Positions 14,991 through 39,886 of a DNA stretch of 52,037 nucleotides are shown piece after piece. The first letter of the stretch is position 1. Each line of letters opens with the position of its first letter. Origin of the DNA: a virus (Duplodnaviria > Caudoviricetes); the IMG/VR virus record IMGVR_UViG_3300049856_000052, positions 1-52,037 of that record; one strand, given 5' to 3'. Below the pieces are notes generated by a model, which saw only the letters and a list, made by a program, of their open reading frames with translations, was not told where the DNA came from and ran no database searches. The position numbers and the translations under genes are program-made.

Positions 14991-15007
14991 AGCAAGATTC
15001 ATGCCAA
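14991..15007 (-). promoter_or_regulatory. sigma54 (-24/-12) promoter
   Basis: Minus strand TTGGCATGAATCTTGCT, identical to the 17-mer upstream of the capsid gene; intergenic. Confidence 0.85.
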
Positions 15008-15008
15008 G

Positions 15009-15872
15009 CTATTTTATTTTTCCAAGTATTTTATATCGCAACACTTGAGCTTGTAACGAACGAACATTACCGGAGAGGGAGAAGAACTCTTTATAGATGT
15101 CGTCTGCTTTGTCATCAGGTTTTGTTTTAGCAAAGTTCATGAACTCCGTTACTAACCCTTCTCCTCCCAGTGAATCAACAATGTCTTCGATATCACATAT
15201 TCTTTGATCTAACCCTTTAGTCTTTAGCTCGAATGTATTGAGTCGATAGAGAACATCTTCCCTAAAGTTTATGGTAGAGAGTTCCTTGTTCGTCGCCGCC
15301 ACTACCCTACAATTGATTGGCTCTTCGATGTCACTACCAATAGGGCACACTACCTTCTCTTGTAGAACTCTTAGCAATTTAGCTTGCATACTCTGTGGCA
15401 TATCCCCAATCTCATCTAGGAATATAGTCCCACCAAACGCAGCCCTGAACTTACCTACCCTTTCAGTGATTGCTCCAGTGAAAGCTCCTTTAGCATGACC
15501 AAAGAGTTCTGATTCAATCAATTCATCCGGGAGTCCTGTGCAATTAACTGCTACGAACTTACCTTTTCTGCTACCATGCAATGCTCTAGCTAGCAATTCC
15601 TTTCCTGTCCCACTTGGTCCTTGGATAAGAACTGGATACTCATACCCTTGCAAGAGTTGAGCTTGCTCTTTTACTAGCTGAGTCTCTGGGTCATTGGTAA
15701 TATAGGAGTCCAATACCTTCTCGGCAGCACAAGAGAAGAATGGGTAATAACCCTTAACCCCTTGTGTTACTGCGATAGCTCTTGCTGATACTTCTTGCTG
15801 TTCTGCTAGTGTTTTCTGTCCATTAGTCCAAAGTGTCCTAATGAAGTCTGACGCATTTTTAATTGGTTGCAT
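15009..15872 (-). CDS. sigma54-dependent activator (bacterial enhancer-binding protein AAA+ domain) without HTH
   Basis: [61 protein letters not shown] and GNVRSL; the protein ends about 13 aa later. Confidence 0.95.
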
Positions 15873-15874
15873 AA

Positions 15875-17041
15875 TTATTCCTCATCTTCTTCGTCATCAC
15901 CCAGTAAATCTTCTTGGATTATTACTGACTCATCTACTGGTATAACAACTTCCGGTGACTTGTTCATGATTACATCTTCCCAAGATTCTCTTTGCCTAAT
16001 CACTTTCTTTAAGCATTTAAGCTTAGCACTGACTGCTGTCGCCACTGCTACTTCAATCGTCCCACGATAGAACACAATAATCTGACTTGTATCACTGAGA
16101 GAAGTGAGTCGAGGAGCACGACCCAATCCCTGAACCAGTTCGATTGCTGAATATGTAGGGGCCAAAAATGTAACGCGAGGACGAGTGGTGATATTAGGAA
16201 TATCTTCTTCATAAGCAAAGTTTGATTCTGGTTTACGTCTAACCTTTTGCTTAGTCATCTCATCAGTGTGATGCAAGGACAAGCCGACGCCGCCAGACTT
16301 GAAGTTGAATAGACAATAAAGAGCTTCTCCACTCTGGAATCTATCAATCTCTTCTTGCCTCTGTTCATAATCTTGCGGCCCTAAGTTTAGTTCAGGAGGT
16401 AAGTTTCCTAGTCCTGCTATATCAGCAAGCAACTGTTGCTTCATCTTCTTCATCTTGTTCAAGTCGATACTTCCTCCAGCAATTACTGAAGCGAGCAATG
16501 CTTGAATCTCATCTTGTTCAAAGCGTTCCTCTTGTGTAGCAGAGAACACTGAACTACCTCCCCAAATTAAGGAAATCTTTTTCCTCGGCACACCGTAAGT
16601 AGAATAAAGAATATGAGCAACCTTAGCAATAGTTGCTTTGAAGTTGCAAGCGCATACTGCTGCCATCCCATACTTCTCCACTTGTTCATTCATTTGTCTA
16701 GCTAAGATCGGAGCACGAATAAGTTCCGCTTCTTGCCTGAACTTTAACCACTCAACTAGTTGTGCGAATGAAGATGTATGCCCTTCTAGTTTGTTTACTG
16801 CTAAACAATACTTCTCGTATGCTTGATTGTATCTTTGTTCATCCTTTGGTGAATCAAAATCAATCATCATAATTCTGTTATGAGCATTGAATTGCGGACG
16901 CACATTCTTAACATCAACGATGTAGTCTGCTATCTCTTTCATCAAGCGTTCTGTTGCTGCTTCACAGTATTCTATTGGGTCTGATGGAGCAGCAATGAAC
17001 CTTGACCAGAGCGGCCAGTGTTGTTTGTCTAGTGTGGGCAT
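15875..17041 (-). CDS. SF2 helicase, C-terminal RecA lobe (split gene; SNF2/strawberry-notch-like)
   Basis: Motif V GGVGLSLH, motif [10 protein letters not shown] and GTIE; no Walker A or B. Confidence 0.8.
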
Positions 17042-17047
17042 AATCTT

Positions 17048-17131
17048 TTAGTATTTAATCATGCACCAAAAGAAGAAGCCTAAAAAGATTAGGCAAGTCA
17101 CTACTACTACTATACATTCTTGTGTGTTCAT
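17048..17131 (-). CDS. 27-aa single-pass membrane microprotein (not in ORF track)
   Basis: MNTQECIVVVVTCLIFLGFFFWCMIKY; its ATG overlaps the upstream TGA and it fills the gap between the helicase halves. Confidence 0.6.
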   Translation of the reverse strand: MNTQECIVVVVTCLIFLGFFFWCMIKY

Positions 17132-18078
17132 AATTTGTATTGCATCCCTAAGTTTACACAAAAGTATTTAGCTTCACACACCCTCGTCCAAGGCGTCGCC
17201 GAACTAAATACCATCTTTACATTTGGGTCTTCAATGTCAGCTAAATTCTGAATGATTTGACTCTGTGTTGAGTCTTCATTCTTTGCGCTCTGACATTCAT
17301 CAATTACCACGAAGAGTGGATGTAAGAACTTTCTCCACTTGTATTCTATTACTTGTTCTCCATTAACTACCTTCTTCACTTTCTCAATGACAGTCTCCAT
17401 CCCTTTTGCTGAACGAAGAGCATCAAAGTTAATCACCCTGAATTGTTTAACTGGACACAACTTGAAGTGATTCTCTAGCACCCGCCTTGTTTGCTTAACT
17501 ATGCTAGCTTTTGTTATGATAAGTGCTGGCCAAGGTGAATAAGTTCTACCCTCGAACCATCCTGATTGCCACAACTCTGCTAACAAAGCACCATAAATAA
17601 ATGTTTTACCTGTCCCCACTCCTGCTGGCAACAATAAAGCTCTCTTATTTTCTACTAAGAGTTTATGCTTCAACTCTTTCGTCGCTTTGATTTGGTGTCG
17701 ATAGAGTGTGACTGGATATTTAGCAATGAGGTCTGTGCTAGTTTTAGGGACAACAGATTCAACAATAGCAGGAAGATTATCATTCTTGGGAATCTCTATT
17801 TGTTTTGGAGAAGCTACTATTGCTTGTTCATCTAGCACTTCTTTCCTAAGAACTTCTCTGAAAGATTCCTCAAGTGGATTAGCTATGTGAACATTGTAAG
17901 CACTGATTGTTAGTGGCTCATCTAATGCTAAAGCTGGGAAGCGTTCATGGGGAACCGACAAGAAGTTTAACACTTCCCTTGCTGTCTTAATCTTCTTTAG
18001 AGATAGGTCTAGGCGGCACCTATTTAGGGATTGCTGATAGAGTGTTAAACGTTTCTTTCGCAGAGTTGAAGGTTGCAT
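17128..18078 (-). CDS. SF2 helicase, N-terminal ATPase lobe (split gene)
   Basis: Q-motif LYRHQ, Walker A GVGTGKT, Walker B IDECQ and motif III SATP; the ORF stops soon after. Confidence 0.85.
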   Translation of the reverse strand: MQPSTLRKKRLTLYQQSLNRCRLDLSLKKIKTAREVLNFLSVPHERFPALALDEPLTISAYNVHIANPLEESFREVLRKEVLDEQAIVASPKQIEIPKNDNLPAIVESVVPKTSTDLIAKYPVTLYRHQIKATKELKHKLLVENKRALLLPAGVGTGKTFIYGALLAELWQSGWFEGRTYSPWPALIITKASIVKQTRRVLENHFKLCPVKQFRVINFDALRSAKGMETVIEKVKKVVNGEQVIEYKWRKFLHPLFVVIDECQSAKNEDSTQSQIIQNLADIEDPNVKMVFSSATPWTRVCEAKYFCVNLGMQYKL

Positions 18079-18081
18079 AGT

Positions 18082-18300
18082 TCATGCGCAATTGATTAGT
18101 TCATGTTGTTCCCAAAGTCTGTTGAGTAGGTCTTGATAATGATTATGGGTCATCACTACTACATTCATATTAGCAAACGCTGGAATTCTTGGGATATGAC
18201 CAGCTTGTGTTCTCAATTCTCCTTTGCTATTAAGCATAAGTTGAGGAGGTTTTGCTGAATAACCTTTTGCTGATTGTGGGGAAACAACTTCGTGTATCAT
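18082..18300 (-). CDS. Hypothetical protein
   Basis: Coupled ORF. Confidence 0.55.
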   Translation of the reverse strand: MIHEVVSPQSAKGYSAKPPQLMLNSKGELRTQAGHIPRIPAFANMNVVVMTHNHYQDLLNRLWEQHELINCA

Positions 18301-18743
18301 AGCTTTAGTTTTTCAATGTCAATTCCAAAAGGAGCAAGCGAACTCCAATCCTGTAGCTTAACTGCATTGTAAGCTAACGCTCTACAGAAAGGAAGTCCTA
18401 GCATAGGAGCTTTCTTGAAGATAGCTTCCGCAATCATGTCCGCATTATGATTAAAGTTTGTGGACATCACCTTCATCTTTGCTGTTCTCTCACCTGCTGT
18501 CCTCCATTCTTCATATCTCCAGACTACTGATTGCGCGCCCTCAATGTCTTCTATGTAGATGCCTGCTTCTTTAAGGTCTGGTATTTGTTCCCTGATTATC
18601 TTGATTACTTCTTCTCCGGGAACTGCTCTATCCCTAAGCTCCACTCCCTTCTTGTAGCTCCAAAGTAGGATTAGAAATAGTGACCTTGGAATTGTCATTG
18701 ATTCTTCTTGCTTTTTTCCTAATTCTTTTTGCTGTTCGTCCAT
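18297..18743 (-). CDS. Hypothetical protein
   Basis: 148-aa ORF within the operon. Confidence 0.65.
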   Translation of the reverse strand: MDEQQKELGKKQEESMTIPRSLFLILLWSYKKGVELRDRAVPGEEVIKIIREQIPDLKEAGIYIEDIEGAQSVVWRYEEWRTAGERTAKMKVMSTNFNHNADMIAEAIFKKAPMLGLPFCRALAYNAVKLQDWSSLAPFGIDIEKLKL

Positions 18744-18897
18744 TTAATTTTTCTCCCACGTTGATAAATTGTCCCTTAGAGGTTTGAAGATAAGAAGTTT
18801 TAGAATAATGAACTATGCGTTCATCTTCTATACTTTGAAGAGGAAGACTGTTTGAAACTTTGAGTTCTCTTAACGCTAATACTTTTGTTGATGGCAT
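18634..18897 (-). CDS. Hypothetical protein
   Basis: Fills the gap but overlaps the next gene by 110 nt. Confidence 0.4.
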   Translation of the reverse strand: MPSTKVLALRELKVSNSLPLQSIEDERIVHYSKTSYLQTSKGQFINVGEKLNGRTAKRIRKKARRINDNSKVTISNPTLELQEGSGA

Positions 18898-18930
18898 AAA
18901 ATAAAAATTCCCGTTATAGCACGACGGGAA
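18898..18930 (-). terminator. Probable intrinsic terminator
   Basis: Minus strand TTCCCGT-9 nt-ACGGGAA followed by TTTTTATTTT. Confidence 0.55.
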
Positions 18931-19010
18931 AAGCGAGGCTATTCATCTATCTTGGCGACACTAATAGCGGAATGTCAGGAGACGAGAGGAGACAACTCTC
19001 TGCCAAGAAA

Positions 19011-19571
19011 TTACTTCTCGTCAGAACGGCGAGTGCGTTTCTTAGCTTCGATAGCAGCTTCGAGTTCTGCAATCTTAGCAGCGATGGAGATACCTTCGCT
19101 GAAGGCAGCAGCACGCTGTTCGGTAGTGAAATTAGGATTAGTAGAAGCTGCCGTATAAAGGGCAGTCATCTGCTTAACCATATCTTCACGCTCTTCACGG
19201 AGTTCCTTAGCAGTAACGCCACCCTTGACGGCACCACTGAGGATAGTGTCAACAACTTGGTCCCAGTTAACACTGTCAGCATCATAGAACTCCTGTTCAA
19301 GTTCCTTACCAGTCTCAGCATCAGCAACAACTCGCTTCTGCCAACCTGCGTCGCCGAGTGTGTAGTCAAGAGCAGCTTGACCATTAGCCTTCGCTGCACG
19401 AGCAAGGATGTCAACTGCCTCTTTCTTACCGAGGAAGTTAACATAGTCTGCAAGGTTCTCTTCAGTAGGAACAAACGCAAGGTAGAGTTGACCTCGCGCG
19501 GCACCACGGATGATAGTTTGAGGAACTGCTTCAAAAGCAACTCCATTACGTTCGCGAACAATTGTATTCAT
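19011..19571 (-). CDS. Hypothetical protein with C-terminal coiled coil
   Basis: A-rich leader; first gene after the sigma54 motif at 19700. Confidence 0.75.
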   Translation of the reverse strand: MNTIVRERNGVAFEAVPQTIIRGAARGQLYLAFVPTEENLADYVNFLGKKEAVDILARAAKANGQAALDYTLGDAGWQKRVVADAETGKELEQEFYDADSVNWDQVVDTILSGAVKGGVTAKELREEREDMVKQMTALYTAASTNPNFTTEQRAAAFSEGISIAAKIAELEAAIEAKKRTRRSDEK

Positions 19572-19699
19572 GTTGTTTGTTTTTCTATTTAGTTCTTGTT
19601 AGATAGAGATAGACAGAAACACTCTGTATATTTTACTAGCGAGAATTGCTAAACTACTAATTAAGGACTAAGGTTGAAAGAATAAGGACAAGTCTCTCT

Positions 19700-19716
19700 A
19701 GCAGGACTCATGCCAA
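19700..19716 (-). promoter_or_regulatory. sigma54 (-24/-12) promoter
   Basis: Minus strand TTGGCATGAGTCCTGCT (GG-N10-GC); intergenic. Confidence 0.75.
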
Positions 19717-19729
19717 AGGATTTAATAGG

Positions 19730-19909
19730 TTAGTCTTGCAACTTAATGCAAGAGCTAAACTTAGAATTCTTGGGGAACCATTCCCCAATGTTAGAAGAAT
19801 CATTCTTGTCATGCACTACTAAATAGTGTGTTGATGATTCTTTGATGATGGTTCCTGTGAAGGATTGTGATTTACCATCAGGACGACTAATAAGGATTGA
19901 GGCTTTCAT
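19730..19909 (-). CDS. 59-aa hypothetical protein (not in ORF track)
   Basis: [12 protein letters not shown]...CIKLQD; ATGA overlap with the ligase stop. Confidence 0.6.
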   Translation of the reverse strand: MKASILISRPDGKSQSFTGTIIKESSTHYLVVHDKNDSSNIGEWFPKNSKFSSCIKLQD

Positions 19910-20481
19910 TTTGTTTTCTTTGGTTTTACTAATAGTCGCTGACTTCCAAAGTCACGAGTCTTGATTTTTACCATTCGCCCATCAGGATGATGCCAGACGA
20001 TGCCTTCGATATCTTTGCCACTTAGATACAACTTGAGTTCATCATAAGAGCGTGGCGCATCATTCAGAACTTCGCACCCGTGAGCAATAAGTGTGTGTGT
20101 TGGTATGCCTTCTGGATTGCCTTGGATTTTTGGTCCGATGAGTTCATATGTCCCATCGGGCAAGTTTCCTCCAACCACATTCCACGCCTCACGATGCCAT
20201 TGGTCACTAGAATCATCTCCGACAAGCAGCCATCCGGGGTGATGACCAGTTACAAAGTCAGGTTCTTGTGCGGCCTCAAATCCGATTGGTGGTGTCTTTC
20301 CTTTTTTTGCGTCGTATCGCTTCCACAGTTTTCCATCCCGAATCATACAACACGTTCCATCATACTTGCGTGTAGCGACACCTTCACCGGCTGCCACCCA
20401 TTCAGCACCCGGCATGATTTCATTTCTTACAAGGCGGCTGCCTTCGTAGTTTCGTTGATACAGACTAATTATTTTTTTCAT
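19906..20481 (-). CDS. ATP-dependent RNA ligase-like protein (RLIG1/DUF5565-like)
   Basis: Motif [17 protein letters not shown], motif IV EGIVW and motif V KIK. Confidence 0.75.
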
Positions 20482-20668
20482 ACCTGGCCGTCGCTTTTTC
20501 CTGTAATACTAAAGCTTTCACTGGGTAAATCTGGACAGAACCAGATTCATATTCTGATTCTACACAATAACCTTCTGGAGTCAGCTTTGTTGAATAAGTC
20601 CCAACAACTGTCCCTCGCCAGTTTGCGCCTGTTATTTTACGAACTTTATCACCAAGTTTGAATAGCAT
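20465..20668 (-). CDS. dfrB: Type II (R67/DfrB-like) dihydrofolate reductase homologue
   Basis: F.LGD.VRK..GA.W.G..VG.Y.T.LTPEGY.VESE...[10 protein letters not shown] aligns without gaps to the R67 core. Confidence 0.88.
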
Positions 20669-20700
20669 AAGCTAAATGCTCATTTGGTTTTTTAGTTAAC

Positions 20701-21045
20701 TCACTTAATCTCAATTCCAAGTGACTCGATTTTATTTTTCAGCTCAGTAAGTTCTGCTTGGATTTTGTTCTTCTCAGAGTATTCAGCTAGCCAACGAGTT
20801 GTTGTTAGTGCGTTCTCAGAGGTCAACTTAGTGATTGCGTCATGCGGTGCGATTAGGAAGTCATCCTGAACAACTTCAAAAGACAAGCGTTTATCTACTT
20901 CGGCGGCGATCCACTTGATGTCTTTTCCATAGCCTTCAGAAGTTACAAGTTTTGCGGAAGACAAGGCTCTAAGTAGCACTCCTGAGTCTTGGTCAACGTC
21001 GATAATTACGAAATGTGAGTAAGGAACTTCGAGTTTGATTTTCAT
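20701..21045 (-). CDS. Hypothetical protein
   Basis: Coupled ORF. Confidence 0.65.
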   Translation of the reverse strand: MKIKLEVPYSHFVIIDVDQDSGVLLRALSSAKLVTSEGYGKDIKWIAAEVDKRLSFEVVQDDFLIAPHDAITKLTSENALTTTRWLAEYSEKNKIQAELTELKNKIESLGIEIK

Positions 21046-21389
21046 GGTTTTGTTTTTTGGTTAATGGTGAGGAGAAAGGCTTCTGCGCGTTGGGCTGCGG
21101 TGGCATTAACTAAGAAGTAAATGCGCATCCATTTATCGTCAGATGGTAATGTTGGGTCGTAATGAAGTGGATGCACATTTACTAAGTTTGCTACATAAGC
21201 ACGACGCTGTGCGTTTGTTAAACTATTCTCCGCCTCGTGCATTGCGTTCAGGTCGTTGAGGTAGTTGGGCGGAGAATAACAAACTTGCATTACTTCTGGA
21301 TGACACCAGTAGGCATCTCCATGCTCTTGTGTTTTGTGAGTCCATCCACACGCTTCTGCTATCGCGATTCGTTTTTGTTCAGGGGTCAT
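21042..21389 (-). CDS. Phage protein, ABA-sandwich-like
   Basis: IAEACGW...PNYLNDLNAMHEAE...ATAAQRAEAFL, a pattern common in phage early proteins. Confidence 0.6.
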   Translation of the reverse strand: MTPEQKRIAIAEACGWTHKTQEHGDAYWCHPEVMQVCYSPPNYLNDLNAMHEAENSLTNAQRRAYVANLVNVHPLHYDPTLPSDDKWMRIYFLVNATAAQRAEAFLLTINQKTKP

Positions 21390-21421
21390 AAGTTATTGAA
21401 TTGAAAGGTTGAGTGTTGTTG

Positions 21422-21598
21422 TTAACATGCGTTATGTTTACTAACAGTGTCCCAGCCTAAACTAGACCAAGACTCATAATTTCGTCCAAATCTAAAAATT
21501 CTACCTAATTTAAGTGATTGGCCTTTGTAAGGCCTCCAAACTTTTTTACCTTTAATCAGGAATTGAACATGAATGTTGTCTATTCTATATGGTTTCAT
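21422..21598 (-). CDS. Small basic hypothetical protein
   Basis: Start moved to the ATG at 21598, just after the tRNA-like element. Confidence 0.5.
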   Translation of the reverse strand: MKPYRIDNIHVQFLIKGKKVWRPYKGQSLKLGRIFRFGRNYESWSSLGWDTVSKHNAC

Positions 21599-21606
21599 AA
21601 AAAGGT

Positions 21607-21721
21607 TGAGCGCGGCAGGATTTGAACCTGCACGTCGGGTTCTTCCTCGGTGGTAGCTTTCGCACTCCGAATAGACCGACACGTTATTAAGTCATGCGTC
21701 TTTACATTCCGCCACGCGCTC
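21607..21721 (-). tRNA. tRNA-Leu-like RNA (possible UAA anticodon) with a very long variable arm; atypical or pseudo-tRNA
   Basis: Acceptor GAGCGCG/CGCGCTC plus discriminator A, D-arm GCGGAATGTAAAGACGC, perfect T-arm GCAGG-TTCAAAT-CCTGC; 115 nt. Confidence 0.7.
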
Positions 21722-21851
21722 ATAAATTAAGTTTCACCAGTTCGCTCCGCTGGTGAGCCGGAAGCTTTAAGACAGCCAACTTTGCTTTAACGACATTTTT
21801 GTAGCTCATAACTAGTATTGCTGTTTCTTTTGTCGTATGCTTGCGAGGCAT
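21720..21851 (-). CDS. 43-aa hypothetical protein (not in ORF track)
   Basis: MPRKHTTKE...LVKLNL; fills the gap between two structured elements. Confidence 0.35.
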   Translation of the reverse strand: MPRKHTTKETAILVMSYKNVVKAKLAVLKLPAHQRSELVKLNL

Positions 21852-21857
21852 ATTGAA

Positions 21858-21969
21858 TTATCCCGCCGCGAGAGTGTCCTGACATGACTCAGTGACGCTT
21901 GCCGACATCTTCGACTGTGATGTCTTGCTGTGCTCTTTCGCGCTTTCGGCCAGCACAGGCACGGGATAA
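21858..21969 (-). ncRNA. Candidate structured RNA element
   Basis: GC-rich non-coding block closed by TTATCCCG/CGGGATAA, with inner GACATC/GATGTC and CTGTGCT/AGCACAG stems. Confidence 0.45.
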
Positions 21970-21992
21970 ATTGTTAAAATCATTTACTCTGC

Positions 21993-22199
21993 TTACATAC
22001 TAAGTTGACTTATCATTTTAAGAGCAAAAGTAAAAGCCTCATTTTTATCTATAAAGATTTTTGTTTCTGGTTTGTAAGGAACTTTTCTATAAATACAACC
22101 AGCTTCAATCTCATAGTCAAAGTAAGTGACTAAGTAACCCCAACCATCTTGATTTTGGACTCTTTCGATGATTATCTTATAGCAAGAACAATATCCCAT
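21993..22199 (-). CDS. Hypothetical protein
   Basis: 68-aa ORF. Confidence 0.5.
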   Translation of the reverse strand: MGYCSCYKIIIERVQNQDGWGYLVTYFDYEIEAGCIYRKVPYKPETKIFIDKNEAFTFALKMISQLSM

Positions 22200-22239
22200 A
22201 TTTTAATCGAGGGTGTAAATAGAATTATTAAAATTGAAT

Positions 22240-22372
22240 TCTCTCTCCGTTACTCGACAGGAGCAGTAATTAGTGCTTTGTGCCCGAATGACTCAATGTT
22301 GTTTAGACGTTGACTTATTTTCACAAAGCAGGATTTGCAAGACGAACCTTTTTCTAATTACCCGGAGAGAGA
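22240..22372 (-). ncRNA. Candidate structured RNA element
   Basis: Three nested perfect stems: 22240-49/22363-72, 22266-73/22354-61 and 22274-82/22322-30. Confidence 0.55.
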
Positions 22373-22456
22373 TTAAAGAACAACCAAGAGAAAGTAAAGC
22401 GCGGCGCAAATGAATAAGCAGCCGAGGAAATCAAGGATTAGTGTTTTTGAGTTCAT
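22373..22456 (-). CDS. 27-aa single-pass membrane microprotein (not in ORF track)
   Basis: MNSKTLILDFLGCLFICAALYFLLVVL; sits exactly between two stem elements. Confidence 0.5.
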   Translation of the reverse strand: MNSKTLILDFLGCLFICAALYFLLVVL

Positions 22457-22511
22457 ATTAGTAAGATGGTTCCATAGAAAGTAGTAGAACTGCCAGACAC
22501 ATGAATTTTTG

Positions 22512-22528
22512 CTGGCATGGATATTGCA
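22512..22528 (+). promoter_or_regulatory. sigma54 (-24/-12) motif, antisense to the early arm
   Basis: CTGGCATGGATATTGCA in non-coding DNA. Confidence 0.55.
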
Positions 22529-22684
22529 AGTCTCCACTCTATCTTATGCTCTACTACTCTCTAGGGAACCTCCATCTGTCACATGGAAGCTCTTTGGTTT
22601 TTCGGTTCCTAATTAGGAACTGGCCAGTTACGGTAAAGGACTACTGAAAGCTAGGCAAAACAAATGTTTTGCTCTAGTTGCATT

Positions 22685-22981
22685 TTATGGAATTGGACGA
22701 AGATGTTGTGGAATATTTTTTAAGAATTCGCTAAGGATTTCATACTGAATCCCTAGTTCTGCATTTTCTTCGTCGGAATTAGCCCAAATGAACAAAAATG
22801 CGGCACATTCTTTACAAGAAAGAATTGCTGCATAACTTTTTTCCATTGAGAGGCTTCCACTTGTGTCAACGATTGTGAGTTTCCAGTTGCCAGAATTAAG
22901 CCAAACAAGAGTAAACTCTTGGTCAGATTGTTGCGCATGGAGACTCGCTTCTCCGTTAGGTAGTGTTAGTATTGTTTGCAT
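22685..22981 (-). CDS. Hypothetical protein (start uncertain)
   Basis: ORF downstream of the sigma54 motif at 23099; ATG at 22981 preferred. Confidence 0.55.
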   Translation of the reverse strand: MQTILTLPNGEASLHAQQSDQEFTLVWLNSGNWKLTIVDTSGSLSMEKSYAAILSCKECAAFLFIWANSDEENAELGIQYEILSEFLKNIPQHLRPIP

Positions 22982-23098
22982 AGCTTTCAATAGTCCCTTC
23001 CTACTGACTCGCCCCTTTTCGTCCGGCGGCACAGTGCATAGATAGTTGTTCCGTGTTTACAACTTATCAATTAGGAAGACTTAGGACTTCCTGCATCT

Positions 23099-23115
23099 AG
23101 CAATTTCTGTGCCAC
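23099..23115 (-). promoter_or_regulatory. sigma54 (-24/-12) promoter
   Basis: Minus strand GTGGCACAGAAATTGCT, matching consensus TGGCAC-N5-TTGCW. Confidence 0.8.
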
Positions 23116-23323
23116 TGCTTATTTAGGGCTTGCTTAAATTTTAAGCAATTATAGACAGTCCTCTTGTTAGTTAGATTGAATTGATTGACGTGTTGGAAAT
23201 AAATTCCTGATGGATTAACCATAGCCAATGCTGGCCAGCGATTAACTCAATCAACTCAATCTAAGTAACTGTTTTTTTGATAGATGGAAGCTATACACAC
23301 TTTTGTGTATAGTGAAAACCGGA

Positions 23324-23920
23324 TTATCCTTTCCAATTGTAGGCTTTTAGTGCTAATTCTTTTAGGGGCAGACTAGCAGCAACATAAGCAGCAACATAAG
23401 CAGCATAATAAGCAACAACATAAGCAGCATTATTAGTAGCATAATAAGCAGCATAATAAGCATTATTAGTAGCATAATAAGCAGCATAATAAGCAGTAGC
23501 AGCTTTAAGGCTTCTATCTTTTCCACTTATCCAATTATCTGCCCATGTTTGCCATTGTTCATCTTTATAAACTTCTTTTGCGCAAATAATTCCAAAATAT
23601 ATTTTCTGTAAGTCTGTATATTCTGGAAGTTCTATTTTTCGAAGAGTTGTCAATTTTAGACATCCAAATTTCAGGTTATAGTTACTGATAATGTTACTGC
23701 CATCTGCTATTGCTTCCCATAGAATTGGAGATTTGAATTGAGCATGAGTTGGATTCAAAAGGACTGCCAAATACTTGTCATCATAAAAATGAAGACAAGT
23801 ATTTGAGCAAAGAGCTATTGTTTCATCTTCTTTCAATTGAATCTCATTTGTTATCCCTTCACCCCACTGCATACCATTAAAGGATTGTCCTTTTTCATCT
23901 GTTAGTTTGAAGCATTTCAT
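23324..23920 (-). CDS. Hypothetical phage protein with Ala/Tyr low-complexity repeats
   Basis: KLTD...QWGEG...LCS..CLHFY N-terminal domain; (AAYY)n tandem repeats at about 23380-23500. Confidence 0.7.
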   Translation of the reverse strand: MKCFKLTDEKGQSFNGMQWGEGITNEIQLKEDETIALCSNTCLHFYDDKYLAVLLNPTHAQFKSPILWEAIADGSNIISNYNLKFGCLKLTTLRKIELPEYTDLQKIYFGIICAKEVYKDEQWQTWADNWISGKDRSLKAATAYYAAYYATNNAYYAAYYATNNAAYVVAYYAAYVAAYVAASLPLKELALKAYNWKG

Positions 23921-24122
23921 AATCGAAGATAGGTTTTGAATTTTGTGGACAGCTTCCAACTATCAAATAAAAGTTCTCTTGTTGGCTAAATGCTAGGCAC
24001 ACTTTTGTGCTTAGTTTGTAAATGAAGTGAGGTCGTTGGTTCCTATTTTCCTATAAAGAGGAAAATTAGCTCAACAGTTAGGGACATACAGTTTATTTCA
24101 CTGTCTTACCCTCTCACTAAAT

Positions 24123-24320
24123 TTAGTTCGCTCCAAAAAGGATGTCAAATTTGAGTCCGTTTTCTGTGAACATTTGCCAATGTTGCCAAGGACAATTGCT
24201 TACAGGACTGACATAGATTTGATGTCCTTTGTAGATTGCAAAGATTAGATGTTTATGCATAGCATCTAACCAACAAGGGACTGTGCTACAAGCTGGATTC
24301 GAGTGTAGTCTTTTGCACAT
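24123..24320 (-). CDS. Hypothetical protein
   Basis: 65-aa ORF. Confidence 0.4.
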   Translation of the reverse strand: MCKRLHSNPACSTVPCWLDAMHKHLIFAIYKGHQIYVSPVSNCPWQHWQMFTENGLKFDILFGAN

Positions 24321-24498
24321 TAGTCTTTTGCTACGCCGCTACAATGCCATTGTAATCCTTTCGGCGTGCTAATGGGAGACATGATGAAACTGATACGGAA
24401 AGACACATTGCTTTCACGCTATAGGTTATGATTAGAGAATCAGCCAATAGAGTTTCATATATTTATGAGAACAAAGATTGAACATAGTGCCGCGCTAC

Positions 24499-25122: not shown

Positions 25123-25348
25123 AGTGTCTATCTTCTGAGTGTTGATACGTGGACACACTTATTGCGTGCCTTATTCGTTCAATTCTCAAAAGATTGGACA
25201 CTATGCTCAATCTTTGTTCTCTAGTAGGCTATTCACGCGGGGCGAACATCCAGCGTCTAAAGAGACGGCGAACTCGCGACATCCGGCCTACCGTTTAAGT
25301 TGATCGCCTACCACGCACCTGCGCTTCTATCGGCGATGCCATACCTAT

Positions 25349-25365
25349 AGCAGAGTCAGTGCCAA
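25349..25365 (-). promoter_or_regulatory. sigma54 (-24/-12) promoter
   Basis: Minus strand TTGGCACTGACTCTGCT at the head of the leftward arm. Confidence 0.75.
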
Positions 25366-25412
25366 TCTAAAAATTCTCTTTAACTTGCTCCAGCTCAACA
25401 CTTTACCCCTTT

Positions 25413-30371: not shown

Positions 30372-30685
30372 AAGACTTTGCTGACACAATGAGTAAGTTG
30401 TATGCTGGTGATTTGCCTTCTGTTAATGAACTCAAGCTCAAACAACAAGAAGCTGCACAGAAACTCTATGACGAGAAAGAATTGTGGAAGAACGCACTAG
30501 AACTTCCAGAAGTTAAACTAGTAATTTCTAAACTAGAAAAAGCTGTCGCCGAAGCTCTTCTCACTTTAGAGAATGTTTCTGCCGACAATAATTGGTCAGA
30601 TGCACAGGTAAGATTATTTTTAGTTCGTTACACAACATTAAAGCGAACTCTTAATGCAGTAAACAACAACGCGGAAATACTATGA
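30368..30685 (+). CDS. Hypothetical head-region protein
   Basis: Coupled between portal and scaffold. Confidence 0.65.
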   Translation: MKDFADTMSKLYAGDLPSVNELKLKQQEAAQKLYDEKELWKNALELPEVKLVISKLEKAVAEALLTLENVSADNNWSDAQVRLFLVRYTTLKRTLNAVNNNAEIL

Positions 30686-31869
30686 CTCCAGAAGAACTGA
30701 TAGCTAAAGGTCCAGTTAGTAATGAAGAAGCAGTTGCCGGCGCAGAAGCTACAAAAGCTTTGGCGGCTCCAGAACATAAAGGTGTTCAAGATACTACAAC
30801 TACAAAGAATGTCTTGGCAGCTTTCGACAAAATTGTAAAAAAGGAGGATGCAGTCTCTGATGAAAGCCTCAACAAAATCCTTGATGAAGAAGAACAGAAG
30901 GCAGACGATACTGAGGATAACAAAGAAGACGTATCTAAAGAAGTTGCTAACGATAAGCGCAAGTCTCAAGAAGCAGAGAAAGTTATTGCTGAAGAAGTTA
31001 AAAAGCCAGCACTAGGAACAGCCAGACCTTCTGCCAATGCAGAAGATTTGAAATCATTAGTTCCTGAATCAGCTCAACATCTCTTTAAGAAGATGGATAA
31101 TTCTGCGAGGGAGTTCGTTATCGCAGAGTTGAGAAGGAAGAATAAGGAAACAGAGGAGCTTAAAACGAAGCTTGCCGTCGCCGAACAGCAAAAGAGTAAT
31201 GGCAAAGTTGCAGACTCTTGGTATGAACATGAAGAAGCTTTCATACTTACTCCAGAATTCAGGGAACTAGCTGGAACTAAGAGTCAGATTGCTGCTATTG
31301 AAAAGCATTACCGAGAACAACTTGTAGCCATTAAAGAAGGGGAAGATTGGTTCGACCTTGTTCTAGGAAAGAATGGTGAGATTATCCAGCAAAAGCAAAA
31401 AGCTTCTTCTCAAGCAGATGCTCTTGTTATGACAAGGATTGCGGAAGCTGCTTCAACATTCAGGGATATGGAAAAGCAAGAAGCTTCTCTTATTCAGAAT
31501 TGGAAAGGTAATGCGTTTAACTCTAAAGCAGGTGCGCTTAAAGTAGAAGATGAGTATTTCCCTCAATATGCTAATGCTGATGAGTTTGCAAAAAACGAAG
31601 ATGCTAAGGCACTCAGAACTATCATGGCTAGTGCTGGGCTGCAAAATGATAGGCTTAGTGGATTGACTACTAAGTTGTATGCGTTCGCAATGGAGCATGT
31701 TAGGAAAGTAGAAGAGCTGGAGAAGCAACTTAAATCTGGAAAGTCACCTGTAACAAGGAATGGCCCAACAGGAGATGAGATTAACAATGGAACTACTTCT
31801 AAAGGACAACCTGTTGACCCAGATGATAAGCCTTTTAATCTGAAAGGATTTGAGTCTTATACTAGATAA
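30682..31869 (+). CDS. Probable scaffolding protein
   Basis: Acidic and helical/coiled-coil; lies directly before the capsid gene. Confidence 0.65.
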   Translation: MTPEELIAKGPVSNEEAVAGAEATKALAAPEHKGVQDTTTTKNVLAAFDKIVKKEDAVSDESLNKILDEEEQKADDTEDNKEDVSKEVANDKRKSQEAEKVIAEEVKKPALGTARPSANAEDLKSLVPESAQHLFKKMDNSAREFVIAELRRKNKETEELKTKLAVAEQQKSNGKVADSWYEHEEAFILTPEFRELAGTKSQIAAIEKHYREQLVAIKEGEDWFDLVLGKNGEIIQQKQKASSQADALVMTRIAEAASTFRDMEKQEASLIQNWKGNAFNSKAGALKVEDEYFPQYANADEFAKNEDAKALRTIMASAGLQNDRLSGLTTKLYAFAMEHVRKVEELEKQLKSGKSPVTRNGPTGDEINNGTTSKGQPVDPDDKPFNLKGFESYTR

Positions 31870-31872
31870 GGG

Positions 31873-31889
31873 TTGGCATGAATCTTGCT
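31873..31889 (+). promoter_or_regulatory. sigma54 (-24/-12) promoter of the major capsid gene
   Basis: TTGGCATGAATCTTGCT, 3 bp after the scaffold stop; identical to the motif at 14991-15007. Confidence 0.88.
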
Positions 31890-32024
31890 TGTAGTAATTG
31901 TTCGTAAGTATTAGTGCTTCTTAGCGAAGGGCATCGCACGCTTCTAAATAACTGCAAAGGGCATTGCGGAAAGAGACCAAAAGTCTCTAATTCGTAATTA
32001 ACCTTTTGCAGTTTTTTAGTATCT

Positions 32025-33308
32025 ATGCCAAATCAAATTGACCTTCCCAGAGCAGCTAGTCTCTGGACTGAAGTTGAAAAAGACCTCTACAATCAGTTGC
32101 CTATCTATCTTGCCAAGCGGCAAGTTGAATACATCAAAGAATGGGATTTGTGGACTAAACTCCTCAAGCCACAAAAATGGTCAGCGAACATGGGTAACAC
32201 TATGCGTGGTGTTAACAAAGTTCCTGCTCCTATTCTGCGCGGCCAAGCTCTTCCTAATACTATCCTTCAGCTTCCCAAGAAGGATATTGTTGAAGTTCGT
32301 GAAACTCGTGAAGATGTTCAGTTGTATCGCCAAGACTTCGACTCTAACGTGTTTCAGTTTTTGCCTTCTTTCCAAGACTTCCTCACTGACCATATTGATT
32401 CTCATATTGAAGCAATCAGTCAGAAGATTGTTACCTACAAAGATCTGTTCTATCGAACAGCAATCTTTCACGGTGCCCCTTACATTTGGGTGTGTTCTCC
32501 TAATGACGGCGCGGTTGAACTTCGTAGTTCTCCTTATTGGGGTTCTCCTGCTGTTTCTCTCGCTAAGTCTCAGAGCTATCTCCAGAGTATTATTGCCAAG
32601 GTTGGCGATACTTTGACTCTTGAGAACATTAAGAAACTTGGCACAGTGATGTGGAGTGACCTTAATGTTAAGCCCTATTCTGGTGATGTTACTCCAGATG
32701 GTGCTGATGGTAAGGGTCTTCGCCAAAAGTATTGTCTTGTTACTTCTACGGAAGTTTGGGATAGCTTCACTGATACGGGTTCTTACCTTCTCGGTAATCG
32801 TAAGTTGGACCTCGATGTTGTGACTGGTCCTTTCACTGGTTCGTTGTTTGGTCGTTGGACTACGATGTTTGAGCGATATGAAATGCGTATTGCTGCTGAC
32901 GGAACTATTCCTGCTCCTGAAACTACTGAGGAACAAACCACTGCTTATGATAAGGGTGATACTGTTCCTAATCCTGCTTACGTGAACGCTCCATTTGCTG
33001 TTGCGTTTGCTGTTGGTATGGATGCTTACAAAGCAATTACTGTTGGGCCGCCGCCTTCTAAGTTTGCTGATGGTGGAAGTTCTATGACTATGCGTGATTT
33101 TAATGGCATGGACTGGAACGGTAAGGTTATTCCTACTCGCAATGTTTTGGTTCCTAGCTTGAACCAGAATAACGCTGAAGTCTTGGATACCAACAAGCGT
33201 GGTGAGTATCTCCAACTCGTCTCTGACGCAGTTATGGGTATTCTTCCTAATCGTCGTCGTAACATTATTCCGATTATCTATCGTCGTGAACGTGTTTCGA
33301 CTACCTAA
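32025..33308 (+). CDS. Probable major capsid protein
   Basis: 427 aa after the scaffold, strongly biased codons, own promoter. Called from position and size only. Confidence 0.75.
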   Translation: MPNQIDLPRAASLWTEVEKDLYNQLPIYLAKRQVEYIKEWDLWTKLLKPQKWSANMGNTMRGVNKVPAPILRGQALPNTILQLPKKDIVEVRETREDVQLYRQDFDSNVFQFLPSFQDFLTDHIDSHIEAISQKIVTYKDLFYRTAIFHGAPYIWVCSPNDGAVELRSSPYWGSPAVSLAKSQSYLQSIIAKVGDTLTLENIKKLGTVMWSDLNVKPYSGDVTPDGADGKGLRQKYCLVTSTEVWDSFTDTGSYLLGNRKLDLDVVTGPFTGSLFGRWTTMFERYEMRIAADGTIPAPETTEEQTTAYDKGDTVPNPAYVNAPFAVAFAVGMDAYKAITVGPPPSKFADGGSSMTMRDFNGMDWNGKVIPTRNVLVPSLNQNNAEVLDTNKRGEYLQLVSDAVMGILPNRRRNIIPIIYRRERVSTT

Positions 33309-37345: not shown

Positions 37346-37349
37346 CTTA

Positions 37350-39602
37350 ATGAGATTTCTTCTCTTTTATCTTCTTTCAGCAATAGGTTTGGCGGCGCAA
37401 GCTACTAAACCTGTTCAAGTTTTTTCTACTAATGGTCTACTTCAATGGCCTTCTAATTTCTTTAGGACTAATATTTTAGCAGCAGGAGGAACTTCTCTCA
37501 GCTTTGATTCTTTTGGGCGGATGACCATATCAAGTATTTCAGGGAGTGGAACTAACACTCTTTTCCAAACAAATGGAGTTAACATAGCTTCTGCTGGCAC
37601 ACTTAATTTTGTTTCAGGATTGACAGGTTATGTAAGTGGTGTTAATGTTTTCATAGGAAATAGTGTAGCTGGAGGTGGTGATGTTACTACTGCTCAATTG
37701 TTAGTGGTTAGTAACCAAATGATTGCAAGTAGCAATTATTCTTTTACGGCAATAGGAGTGACTTCTAATAAGTTTCAGACTGATGTTAGCAATTTGCAAG
37801 GGGCAACAAATGGTTTGGCGGCACAAATCTTAGTTGTTAGTAATCAGCTTAATGTCGCAAGTAATAAGTTTCAAACTGACATAGTAAATCTACAGGGAGC
37901 TACTAATGGACTCGCCGCGCAAATCTTAGTTGTTAGTAACCAATTAAATGTTGCGAGCAATAAATTTAACACTGATGTTGGAAATCTGCAAGGAGCTACA
38001 AATGGATTACACACTAGGGTTGGTAATCTCGAAGGAGCTACCAATGGTCTTGATGCTTTGGTAAAGACTAAGCAACAAGGGTCTGCTCATTTGACTAATC
38101 TTTCGCTTAATCCTTACGTTCAATTTACAAACATAAATGCTTTCCAAGCTTCTAATAATACAATAACAACTTGGCTAGGAACTGGAGTATTAACTAACAT
38201 TGTTAATAATTCTACATCATGGCCAGCAGGACAATTTGGTTGGGTTGGAGTTTCTAATAATGGAGATGTCAGGATTAGGACCGTGAGTCAGGGAGCAAAT
38301 ATAACAATAACTGACCAAGGAACTAATTTAAGTTTTGCAGCAGCAGGTGGTGGAGCAACTCCCGGAGGTAATAGTGGGGCAATTCAATTTAATGAAACAG
38401 GAGTTTTTGCGGGGACTAATGAATTTAGATGGGATAGGACTAATGGTAATTTGTATGTAGTTGCTACATCAGCACCAAAAATATCTGTAGAAAAAGCGGG
38501 AGCTACGGGAGGCACTAATTCGATAACTCAAACAGGGATGCAGCATTATGACCCAGGTGCTGACCCTCAATTTGTTTTCTTTACTTCTTCTGGGCCTTCT
38601 GGTGGCGCTGCTGGTGGTTTTACTATTTACACAAATCGAGTAGTTCCTACTGCTACTAATCATCTTGATTTAGGCAGTTTCATCTTTCCTTGGCGAAATG
38701 CCTATGCTGAATCAGTGCAAGCAAATGATTACATAAGTCTAGGAACTAACTTAAACAGTTTGACTAAAATCAAAGCTGCAAACTTCAATTGGAAACCTAC
38801 TAATACTTTTGTATTTACTGTAACAAACCCAACAGCAGGACAAGTCTTAAAGTTTAATTCTGTTTCTTATGCTGCTGGTGTTGCAACAGTAATCCTAACT
38901 AATGATGTGGATTCAACAGGTGGCTTGGCTACCAATGCTAACCAATTTGGAGCAAGTGTAACACTCACACTAAAAGACTATCCTTACACCACAAACATGA
39001 CAGACTTCGCGACGAGTCGTGTCAACAGTATCATAGTTTCAAATAACTCTTATGTGTTTGTAGGAGCGGTTTCTAACTTATTTACCACTAATGCAACAAC
39101 AAGGCTTGGAAGTTCCACAAGTAATTCTTGGATAGGTGGCCGAGTTTATGTTGACATAAACAAAAGAACAAACTTACCTTCTGCTACAATTTGGACAAAT
39201 CTTGCAGTATTCACAGTTCCTGCTCATTCATTAACAAACAATGGTGATACCATAACGGCTGATTGGGTTGGTAATATGTTAAGTGGGACTAATAAGTTTT
39301 TTGTGGGCTATGGTTCTATCACTAATGTGTTGGATTTAACTGGTTTAACTAATGGCCATCCTTTGGCGAGTTGGAATCTTAAACTTCGTATTATTAGAAC
39401 AGCAAGCACAGAACAACGAGTATTTGCAGAATGGCAAACATCTCCCGGATTTGGTATTCAGTATTTCTATACTAATCGAGTGGTTACATTAACAGAAACT
39501 AATGGTATTGACACTTTAATTCGATTGCAGTGTTCAGCTAATAAGTTTGGTAGTATCACTAATGATTTCATGTCTGTAACATTTGAACCGGGGCCTCGTT
39601 AA
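37350..39602 (+). CDS. Fibre-like protein with signal peptide and 32-aa coiled-coil repeats
   Basis: MRFLLFYLLSAIGLAAQA; repeats of SNKFQTD..NLQGATNGLAAQILVVSNQLNVA at about 37760-38010; PGG..G.IQFN..G.F.G and DLGS...PW fibre motifs. Confidence 0.75.
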   Translation: MRFLLFYLLSAIGLAAQATKPVQVFSTNGLLQWPSNFFRTNILAAGGTSLSFDSFGRMTISSISGSGTNTLFQTNGVNIASAGTLNFVSGLTGYVSGVNVFIGNSVAGGGDVTTAQLLVVSNQMIASSNYSFTAIGVTSNKFQTDVSNLQGATNGLAAQILVVSNQLNVASNKFQTDIVNLQGATNGLAAQILVVSNQLNVASNKFNTDVGNLQGATNGLHTRVGNLEGATNGLDALVKTKQQGSAHLTNLSLNPYVQFTNINAFQASNNTITTWLGTGVLTNIVNNSTSWPAGQFGWVGVSNNGDVRIRTVSQGANITITDQGTNLSFAAAGGGATPGGNSGAIQFNETGVFAGTNEFRWDRTNGNLYVVATSAPKISVEKAGATGGTNSITQTGMQHYDPGADPQFVFFTSSGPSGGAAGGFTIYTNRVVPTATNHLDLGSFIFPWRNAYAESVQANDYISLGTNLNSLTKIKAANFNWKPTNTFVFTVTNPTAGQVLKFNSVSYAAGVATVILTNDVDSTGGLATNANQFGASVTLTLKDYPYTTNMTDFATSRVNSIIVSNNSYVFVGAVSNLFTTNATTRLGSSTSNSWIGGRVYVDINKRTNLPSATIWTNLAVFTVPAHSLTNNGDTITADWVGNMLSGTNKFFVGYGSITNVLDLTGLTNGHPLASWNLKLRIIRTASTEQRVFAEWQTSPGFGIQYFYTNRVVTLTETNGIDTLIRLQCSANKFGSITNDFMSVTFEPGPR

Positions 39603-39607
39603 TAATT

Positions 39608-39880
39608 ATGAAAACTGCTTGGGAAACTATTGTAGCATTTAAGTTGGTTTGGTTTAGAGTTGCTTGTTATTTTCTTATTCCTTTTCTTGACACTGCTTAC
39701 GAGCAATTCAAAGATTGGAATGGATTACTTTGGGACACTGCTCATTGGTTTGATATTACTATTAAGTTTGTGTATTCATTGAAGTTTGGTTTGTATTCCT
39801 TAATCGCTTTTGTTGACCAGAGTTTATCAAGAGCTAGGGATCATGCTGAGAATAAAAAAGAGAATAAGATTGGCACGTAA
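39608..39880 (+). CDS. Small membrane protein, possible holin
   Basis: Two hydrophobic segments and a charged C-terminus. Confidence 0.45.
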   Translation: MKTAWETIVAFKLVWFRVACYFLIPFLDTAYEQFKDWNGLLWDTAHWFDITIKFVYSLKFGLYSLIAFVDQSLSRARDHAENKKENKIGT

Positions 39881-39886
39881 AATGCT
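39870..39886 (+). promoter_or_regulatory. sigma54 (-24/-12) promoter of the tail/ejection operon
   Basis: TTGGCACGTAAAATGCT across the stop of the previous gene, 22 bp before ATG 39909. Confidence 0.75.

Follow-up and report, generated by a model that had tools for sequence, protein, structure and literature searches.

A phage-encoded AAA+ activator and predicted sigma-54 promoters across the genome of an uncultivated tailed phage and its relatives

Introduction

Phages usually arrange the transcription of their genes in one of three ways: by redirecting the sigma-70 polymerase of the host, by encoding a sigma factor, or by encoding a polymerase of their own. The virus record IMGVR_UViG_3300049856_000052, analysed here over its entire length of 52,037 nucleotides (nt; positions 1-52,037, referred to below as the window), raises the question whether a phage might rely on the sigma-54 form of the host enzyme, using an activator that the phage itself supplies. 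The window encodes a predicted sigma-54 activator of the family commonly called bEBPs (bacterial enhancer-binding proteins) and carries nine sites of the -24/-12 promoter type. An earlier note on this DNA proposed that the phage runs much of its transcription programme on host sigma-54 RNA polymerase switched on by its own activator. The results of shuffled controls, the placement of the sites between rather than within genes, and the co-occurrence of sites and activator in relatives of the phage all support this proposal. We consider it quite likely that the phage activator switches on the host sigma-54 polymerase, without enhancers, at many phage promoters.

A sigma-54 activator without regulatory and DNA-binding domains

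The predicted activator is encoded on the minus strand by the open reading frame (ORF) 15009-15872 and consists of 287 amino acids (aa), comprising an AAA+ core and an N-terminal extension of about 50 aa. The protein matches the Pfam family PF00158 (Sigma54_activat) with E = 2.8e-55 and 187 bits (cut-off 20.2). Its best sequence matches in PDB are the AAA+ domains of FleQ, NtrC and FlrA (E ~1e-48), and further relatives include NifA, NtrC1, ZraR and PspF (E ~1e-30 for PspF). The core contains Walker A (GPSGTGKE) and Walker B (IFLDEIGD) motifs and the ESELFGH motif; in an alignment of 48 homologues, G85, G88, T89, G90, K91, E92, D153 and E154 are invariant. The GAFTGA motif, the loop (L1) by which such activators touch region I of sigma-54, occupies residues 129-134 and aligns with the GAFTGA motifs of FleQ and NtrC. 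Within it, G129, T132 and A134 do not vary among the same homologues, and at least 90% of them share F131 and G133. The arginine fingers (FREDVLYRL) and sensor II (GNVRSL) are present as well, with R204, D206, R210, N269 and R271 invariant. Judged by its sequence, this protein is a genuine member of the GAFTGA family of sigma-54 activators, in agreement with the earlier note; a search against NCBIfam yielded no equivalog at its cut-off.

The activator terminates 17 aa after GNVR, and all 48 aligned homologues end at the same point. No HTH_8 domain was detected in the protein or elsewhere in the window, and the activator contains no receiver, GAF, PAS or V4R domain. The N-terminal extension is conserved among relatives, with W15, A23, S47 and L54 near-invariant. 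In the absence of a regulatory receiver and of an enhancer-binding helix-turn-helix (HTH) domain, the activator should assemble constitutively and act without enhancers. The PHROGs v4 family phrog_7998, annotated as 'unknown function', matches the AAA+ core with E = 1.9e-39, so that sigma-54-activator-like proteins without a name are already present in some of the viral or prophage records underlying PHROGs v4.

Domain searches of the window detected neither a sigma-54 DNA-binding or core-binding domain nor region 2 or region 4 of sigma-70, consistent with the earlier statement that the genome shows no sigma gene. A search for the T7-type RNA polymerase domain gave no match in the window, but its positive control was silent too, so that this search is uninformative. 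The metal-binding motif [DN]xD[GA]D, the hallmark of two-barrel polymerases, occurs in no called ORF. The phage appears to encode neither an RNA polymerase nor a sigma factor, with many of its large proteins lacking annotation.

Nine sigma-54-type sites in the window

Sites were defined by the pattern TGGCAY-N5-HTGCW, in which GG and GC are 10 nt apart. The window contains nine exact matches, at 14991(-), 19700(-), 22513(+), 23099(-), 25349(-), 25413(-), 26140(+), 31874(+) and 39871(+). These are the same nine sites that the earlier note had listed; its minus-strand coordinates stand, whereas the four plus-strand ones were one base low, apparently through inclusion of the preceding base. The chance expectation, estimated from 100 dinucleotide-preserving shuffles, is 0.36 sites, in line with the earlier guess of less than one per window; the largest number in a shuffle was 3, and none of the 100 reached nine. 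When the spacer was changed, no matches were found in the window with N2-N4, N6 or N7, and one each with N8 and N9. A looser scan, in which GG and GC were fixed and at least 9 of the 11 consensus letters were required, added 14 sites, all of them genic and all off-consensus in the TGGCA core, so that only the nine TGGCAY sites are non-coding. Eight of the nine lie wholly in non-coding DNA, and the ninth, 39871, overlaps the final 10 nt of ORF 39608-39880, which bears out the description of the sites as intergenic or at gene boundaries. The small ORFs called over 22513 and 23099 have codon-usage scores of -0.13 and -0.01, compared to at least 0.09 for confident genes, and were treated as non-coding. 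An equal frequency of the motif inside genes or in shuffled sequence, which had been named as grounds for abandoning the proposal, is not observed. A chance origin of the nine sites was considered and rejected on the basis of the shuffles, the genic versus intergenic placement and the wrong-spacing controls.

The window is organized into two divergent gene arms that flank a 1.1-kb non-coding region (25159-26270). Eight of the nine sites point in the same direction as the genes of the arm in which they lie and are located 22-254 nt before a start codon, so that the earlier count of eight sites facing genes holds as well. The rightward arm is headed by the predicted promoter at 26140-26155(+), 115 nt before ORF 26271-26708; two further predicted promoters of this arm are located at 31874-31889(+), 135 nt before ORF 32025-33308, and at 39871-39886(+), 22 nt before ORF 39909-41084. 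The leftward arm is headed by a tandem pair of predicted promoters 64 nt apart (repeat D2), the distal one at 25413-25428(-) and the proximal one at 25349-25364(-), the latter 190 nt before ORF 24499-25158. Another predicted promoter of this arm, at 23099-23114(-), lies 66 nt upstream of ORF 22685-23032. The one at 19700-19715(-) heads a unit that extends from 19571 to 15009 and includes an ORF without assignment, two helicase halves and the activator. Here, ORF 19011-19571(-) is coding-like (score 0.377), in contrast to the ORF on the opposite strand (-0.207), and the start of the activator gene and the stop of the helicase gene before it overlap, suggesting that the two are co-transcribed. 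The predicted promoter at 14991-15006(-) begins 3 nt past the activator stop, 39 nt before ORF 14649-14951. As also pointed out previously, this site and 31874(+) share an identical 17-mer although they belong to opposite arms.

The commonest 6-8-mers upstream of the nine sites, present in 6, 4 and 3 sites, are about as frequent as the shuffle means of 5.6, 3.7 and 2.8. The lack of a shared upstream element is as expected for an activator that has no DNA-binding domain. In a search of sequencing runs, the window sequence was found in full in one DNA run, possibly that of the source sample, and no RNA run was listed as containing it.

Linkage of the activator and the sites in related viruses

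Out of about 2.9 million viral contigs, a scan with an alignment of the activator identified at least 342 that encode a relative; a scan of viral contigs with the single protein gave no match. A large protein collection contains about 60 short activators of 264-326 residues with 43-75% identity to the query, several of them encoded on contigs of 52-57 kb; the next-best matches in this collection are cellular GlrR-type regulators, which align in the AAA+ core only. Identity within the phage activator clade ranges from 38% to 75%. A tblastn search of the activator against GenBank phages returned 65 records, among which there was no cultured phage with a phage-type activator; judging by names and hosts, they comprise contigs of bacteria that were entered as phage, or else pieces of metagenomes. 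Scans of genome and metagenome contigs yielded mostly ordinary cellular activators among the matches listed, with no host and no close relative.

The best 80 of the at least 342 viral loci were analysed with flanks of up to 10 kb on each side where the contig allowed (1.25 Mb altogether). These loci contain 134 sites with the N5 spacer, compared to 15, 4, 5, 7, 5, 12 and 3 matches with seven wrong spacers (51 in total). ORFs of the relatives were called with a crude procedure that assigned 92% of the sequence as coding; nevertheless, 104 of the 134 N5 sites are intergenic, as opposed to 3 of the 51 wrong-spacer matches, and for 79 of these 104 an ORF on the same strand starts no more than 300 nt away. 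The great majority of the sites (116 of 134) are co-directional with the activator, and in 39 of the 80 loci a same-strand site is found within 120 nt past the activator stop, as at 14991 in the window. As a control, 80 cellular bEBP loci (1.29 Mb) were found to contain 31 sites, the density in the viral loci being 4.4 times higher. In 15 relatives with completeness ratings of 95-100% and lengths of 51.7-55.6 kb, nine of which have terminal repeats, there are 93 sites against a single match to the reversed pattern; the numbers per genome are 3, 7, 7, 4, 5, 6, 8, 4, 8, 6, 5, 8, 4, 11 and 7. Divergent pairs of sites like that of the control region of the window also occur in relatives, for example, 36374(-) and 36828(+) in G002. 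The replication module of the window recurs in the 80 loci, with the helicase halves in 60 and 47, a nuclease in 60, the polymerase parts in 52 and 42 and the DUF3987 protein in 31.

A FastTree phylogeny was built from 254 AAA+ cores, namely the window protein, 57 short metagenomic activators, those of the 80 viral loci, 86 cellular proteins and 30 of 80 metagenome loci. In this tree, 130 of the 138 phage-type sequences fall on one side of a branch with a Shimodaira-Hasegawa-like support of 99. The presence of strict sites follows the tree: they are found in 67 of the 72 in-clade loci and in none of the 8 outside the clade (Fisher p = 4e-8), so that activator and motif co-occur in relatives as the earlier note had anticipated. 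The GC content of the 72 in-clade loci spans 28-59%. The only 'cellular' sequence inside the phage group (L133) comes from a contig of about 41 kb in a genome assembly labelled as a metagenome-assembled genome (MAG); one strict site is present in 20.7 kb of this locus, which is likely to be a phage contig binned into a MAG.

The positions that the search pattern leaves free are also informative. Among 118 distinct in-clade sites, T precedes TGG in 74, G follows CAY in 82 and the final letter is T (TGCT) in 114. The consensus of sigma-54 promoters is YTGGCACG-N4-TTGCW, and the free positions of the relatives' sites appear to follow it. The flanks of the 118 sites carry less than 0.2 bit of information everywhere except at the position adjoining the core; hence there is no sign of a common enhancer at the phage sites, which would fit an activator unable to bind DNA.

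Site clusters in other viral records

In the reverse direction, the 17-mer of the window, with C or T allowed at one position, was compared with all viral contigs and found in 64 stretches. Of these loci, 13 encode the clade activator and 18 encode some homologue of a protein from the window; at least two sites are present in 20. When 52 of the 17-mer records were searched whole, a short PF00158 protein (open frames of 181-318 aa) was found in 15, a rate far above the viral-contig background.

Dense clusters of sites were observed at L273 (in record G018), L289 (G019), L245 (G016), L246 (G017), L297 (G065) and L303. These loci show no relationship to the window in the parts examined, and the five records that were searched whole (all but that of L303) contain no PF00158 protein. 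In particular, G019 (55% complete) has 22 sites within 14 kb, G018 (34% complete) has nine sites, all in the same orientation and mostly with a similar element upstream of them (TCAAGGAGTT...GAG), and G016 (44% complete) has six sites within 300 nt. Arrays of sites in alternating orientation, 20-50 nt apart, are found at L245, L246 and L297. As G016-G019 and G065 are only 20-55% complete, an activator may be encoded off the contig. Clusters in activator-less records could represent host-activated promoters, sigma-54 sinks or something else, and they suggest that phages beyond the activator clade make use of sigma-54.

Alternative explanations

The alternative that survives best, although we consider it improbable, is that the sites do function as sigma-54 promoters but depend on activators of the host, as in the Pseudomonas phage YuA, whereas the phage activator mainly switches on the host sigma-54 regulon as a takeover or auxiliary function. 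According to the notes of its GenBank record and the part of PMC10914365 available, the -24/-12 promoters of YuA showed activity in a trap assay from which phage proteins were absent. Furthermore, site clusters without any PF00158 protein exist in three complete phage genomes with terminal repeats, namely G020 (38 kb, found via L274; five strict sites, four of them in tandem at a spacing of about 40 nt), G030 (48 kb, via L256; seven sites, six within about 450 nt of the record ends) and G039 (117 kb, via L267; six sites, five within 4 kb). These genomes may be YuA-like users of host activators or may carry sigma-54-binding arrays. An activator without a DNA-binding domain would also be expected to fire host sigma-54 promoters, as indicated by the passages available of a study in Salmonella (PMC3844500). 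Host activators, however, normally need enhancers of their own, and the sites have no upstream element in common; the tight linkage, both next to the activator gene (39 of 80 loci) and across the tree (67 of 72 against 0 of 8), argues for a cognate pair. The two roles of the activator, at the host regulon and at phage promoters, are not mutually exclusive.

Still less probable is the possibility that the sites are stable closed-complex roadblocks, insulators or sigma-54 sinks, which the AAA+ protein would clear. The array-like clusters in other viral records, such as the six sites within 300 nt in G016 and the four tandem sites 40 nt apart in G020, resemble binding arrays more than promoters, and the accessible passages of PMC3844500 consider sigma-54 sites within genes that might act repressively. 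By contrast, the sites of the window and of the activator clade are single or paired, located at operon heads, co-oriented and 22-254 nt before genes, which is the geometry of promoters. The notion that the motif is read by an unrecognised phage sigma factor, phage RNA polymerase or other DNA-binding protein while the AAA+ protein has another job draws on the many structural-arm proteins without a detectable family, but is very hard to reconcile with the failure to find sigma-54, sigma-70 and T7-type domains (the T7 control being silent) or the [DN]xD[GA]D motif, with the sigma-54 preferences at the free positions of the motif and with the sigma-54-specific GAFTGA loop of the co-inherited protein.

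Several observations weigh against activation of genome-wide phage promoters by the phage activator. The analysed loci include near-duplicates (for example, L009 and L010), so that the counts are not independent; 30 of the 134 sites in the relatives are genic by the crude ORF calls, and 5 of the 72 in-clade loci have no strict site. The tree was obtained with FastTree only, a quick method, and contains some long branches. In the window, the site 22513-22528(+) is antisense, lies within a 485-nt non-coding gap and faces no gene; the 143 nt downstream of it fold with z = -2.6 and terminate in a hairpin, and this site may drive a small structured RNA. A scan for the sigma-70 consensus in the region 14000-33000 gave 33 matches compared to 36.5 expected from shuffles. 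The best isolated sigma-70-like candidates are 24148-24120(-) and 14420-14391(-), but because such matches are no richer than in shuffled sequence, no early promoter is named. With the activator gene placed downstream of sigma-54 sites and no convincing sigma-70 promoter found, the proposal does not account for how the cascade would begin. That the host carries rpoN is an assumption. Finally, the motif clusters in records without a PF00158 protein, together with YuA, imply that a phage activator is not required for phage sigma-54 sites generally.

Proposed circuit

Activation of host sigma-54 polymerase by the phage protein could work as follows, with sigma-54 dependence, enhancer independence and positive feedback all being predictions from genome sequence. 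The host sigma-54 holoenzyme would bind the nine sites as closed complexes, and the phage AAA+ protein, assembled constitutively, would remodel the promoter-bound holoenzyme from solution using ATP, without enhancers. The combination of an activator devoid of a DNA-binding domain with promoters devoid of a shared upstream site would place this system among the enhancer-independent ones. The rightward promoters 26140, 31874 and 39871 would serve the whole packaging, head and tail arm, whereas the leftward promoters 25413, 25349, 23099, 19700 and 14991 would serve the small ORFs, the helicase, the activator and the replication genes of the other arm.

The unit headed by 19700 ends with the activator gene, and the promoter at 14991 comes directly after it, so the circuit would be self-amplifying once some activator had been made and would feed forward onto the downstream unit, from ORF 14649-14951 towards the replication genes. 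The first activator molecules would perhaps come from a weak sigma-70 promoter or from read-through. The earlier note spoke of a site at the head of the early arm; the activator itself, however, ends the 19700-headed unit, so that its first expression would need another source, and the label 'early' for the leftward arm is itself an assumption.

A broader proposal is that an entire lineage of widespread and as yet uncultivated phages of about 50-56 kb, represented by at least 342 viral contigs with a relative of the activator, relies on the host sigma-54 polymerase for essentially all of its gene expression, by way of a self-amplifying loop that depends on a natural AAA+-only activator. We put this forward tentatively and, on balance, lean against it. 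If it were true, these phages would be independent of sigma-70 and confined to rpoN-positive hosts, and would fire the host sigma-54 regulon as a side effect.

If the phage activator indeed acts on sigma-54 promoters throughout the genome, this would add a further strategy to those known for phage transcription. The sigma-54 holoenzyme is the one bacterial form of the polymerase that is fully silent without an ATPase and hence offers an intrinsically tight off/on switch. Loss of rpoN would be expected to confer resistance, a phage with a mutated GAFTGA motif would be dead, and the host sigma-54 regulon would be induced on infection. The pair of motif and activator would be a simple marker for rpoN-positive hosts and would aid annotation of a large clade of uncultivated phages, and the clade would offer a constitutive, enhancer-independent activator with matched promoters as parts for tightly controlled expression systems.

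Other features of the genome

The window (GC content 40.6%) comprises an entire virus record that is rated 100% complete, although no end repeats were found; by the gene calls of this analysis, 4512 nt, or 8.7%, are non-coding. The large terminase subunit (26711-28513, plus strand), preceded by ORF 26271-26708(+), shows 25-28% identity over about 80% of its length to annotated terminases of Akkermansia phages in a tblastn search, in which matches were limited to phages of Akkermansia, Clostridium and Thermus. The presence of this gene identifies the element as a tailed phage, and the window is the complete or nearly complete genome of an uncultivated one. In the rightward arm, a portal-like protein gave a weak match, and ORF 39909-41084(+), which contains a Laminin_G_3 domain, resembles a virion structural protein. 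ORF 32025-33308(+) is probably the major capsid protein, an assignment to be taken as a lead: it has viral neighbours in Atlas, with 13% Phage_capsid_3 in one cluster, whereas BLAST and Pfam searches gave no match and no protein match was found among GenBank phages. Most of the structural proteins remained without a name after searches of PHROGs, Pfam and NCBIfam, and sequence searches of PDB with three large ORFs gave no match. A megablast comparison of 20 kb of the window with GenBank phages detected no DNA match, and the phage appears to have no cultured relative in that collection.

A giant plus-strand ORF runs off both ends of the record (3-3062 and 47379-52037). Its start part contains an ART-PolyVal ADP-ribosyltransferase domain (E = 2e-26), which is typical of injected 'polyvalent' phage proteins. 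Circular joining of the window ends breaks the frame of this ORF, with the first stop 57 codons beyond the junction; bases are therefore probably missing between the ends of the record, despite the completeness estimate of 100%.

The leftward arm encodes, in addition to the activator, many small ORFs without assignment, a two-part helicase (17128-18078 and 15875-17041, minus strand; Pfam ResIII/DEAD and Helicase_C), a PD-(D/E)XK nuclease, a deoxynucleoside monophosphate kinase, an AAA_24 ATPase, a family A DNA polymerase in two adjacent ORFs (6068-7564 and 5091-6083, minus strand), a DUF3987 primase/helicase-type protein and a MazG-like pyrophosphatase. The helicase halves are 86 nt apart, and the gap contains a terminator-like hairpin (17094-17078). 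The splits in the helicase and the polymerase look native rather than assembly errors because both halves recur in many relatives.

The divergent control region between the arms (25159-26270, 1.1 kb) contains repeats at 25766-25833 and 26077-26137, namely three iteron-like copies of ATTATTAG...TCTAACATTATT spaced by 19 nt and three copies of CACTAAAT(T/C)C, the latter directly upstream of the 26140 promoter. These repeats could be an origin or sites for some regulator. An Rfam tRNA model matches 21607-21721(-) with 37.5 bits (gathering score 29) over 115 nt, whereas ARAGORN found no tRNA in the window. The acceptor and T arms of this element are perfect, but its D-loop and anticodon loop contain inserts of about 20 nt and about 21 nt, respectively. 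The called ORF 21422-21682 and the small ORF 21720-21851, which was discounted, both overlap the element; it may be a tRNA with an intron, a degenerate tRNA or something tRNA-like.

Comparison with known systems

The closest precedent for phage use of sigma-54 is YuA (Yuavirus), and the remark in the earlier note that it knew of no characterised phage of this kind does not stand for the use of this factor as such, since YuA has three -24/-12 promoters that proved active in experiments. Its GenBank record annotates them as high-activity consensus promoters in the head, tail and lysis region, and the abstract of a 2008 paper on this phage is said to report that an rpoN mutant confirmed sigma-54 dependence. 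These promoters are also described as sigma-54-dependent in the part of another source available (PMC10914365). YuA and the phage of the window are both tailed, have no RNA polymerase of their own and carry -24/-12 promoters for virion genes. Unlike the phage of the window, YuA encodes no sigma-54 activator (best tblastn E = 0.22, and no Pseudomonas record among the 65 GenBank-phage matches); it has no strict TGGCAY-N5-HTGCW site, compared to nine in the window, and combines only three sigma-54 promoters with other promoter classes. No protein homology between the two was seen, and there was no DNA or capsid match among GenBank phages. Since YuA lacks an activator, the phage-encoded activator is the new part of the system. 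Sigma-54 may be a far commoner target of phage transcription strategies than the single case of YuA suggests.

Activators without a DNA-binding domain are known from bacteria, and enhancer-independent bEBPs of this kind include CtcC of Chlamydia and FleT of Rhodobacter. Another is FlgR of Helicobacter pylori, described as enhancer-independent and without a DNA-binding domain in the excerpts available (PMC9696931). FlgR and the phage activator are both AAA+ sigma-54 activators without a C-terminal HTH, but FlgR has a receiver domain and is kinase-controlled, whereas the phage activator has only the N-terminal extension of about 50 aa and is virus-encoded. The most similar in architecture is DctD250, an engineered AAA+-only fragment of Sinorhizobium meliloti DctD that, as far as the available passages describe, is constitutive and acts from solution at nearly all sigma-54 promoters of Salmonella, driving them more weakly than an enhancer-bound activator does (PMC3844500). 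Neither DctD250 nor the phage activator has a regulatory or a DNA-binding domain, but the former is a laboratory truncation, whereas the phage clade looks like a naturally occurring counterpart that has persisted through long divergence (38-75% identity). Conversely, bEBPs of the PspF and HrpR/HrpS type lack the N-terminal regulatory domain. PspF resembles the phage activator in having no cis-acting regulatory domain but keeps the HTH and is held in check in trans by PspA; no such partner is known for the phage activator.

Among phage proteins, the most relevant is Htm (Gp204) of an Escherichia coli phage, which has a bEBP-like AAA+ fold and is proposed to act on the sigma-54 polymerase in the available passages of a 2026 bioRxiv preprint. 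Both Htm and the activator described here are phage-encoded AAA+ proteins that, as far as those passages go, have no DNA-binding domain. According to the authors, the GAFTGA loop is absent from Htm and its Walker B motif is changed, whereas both are intact in the phage activator; the passages of the preprint mention no phage sigma-54 promoters, compared to the nine predicted in the window. A literature search, with subscription journals mostly outside its coverage, returned no report of a natural phage-encoded GAFTGA activator together with phage sigma-54 promoters. Sigma-54, the bEBPs and enhancer-independent activation are all well known; what is new, as far as we found, is a phage lineage that owns both an activator of this family and matching predicted promoters distributed over the genome.

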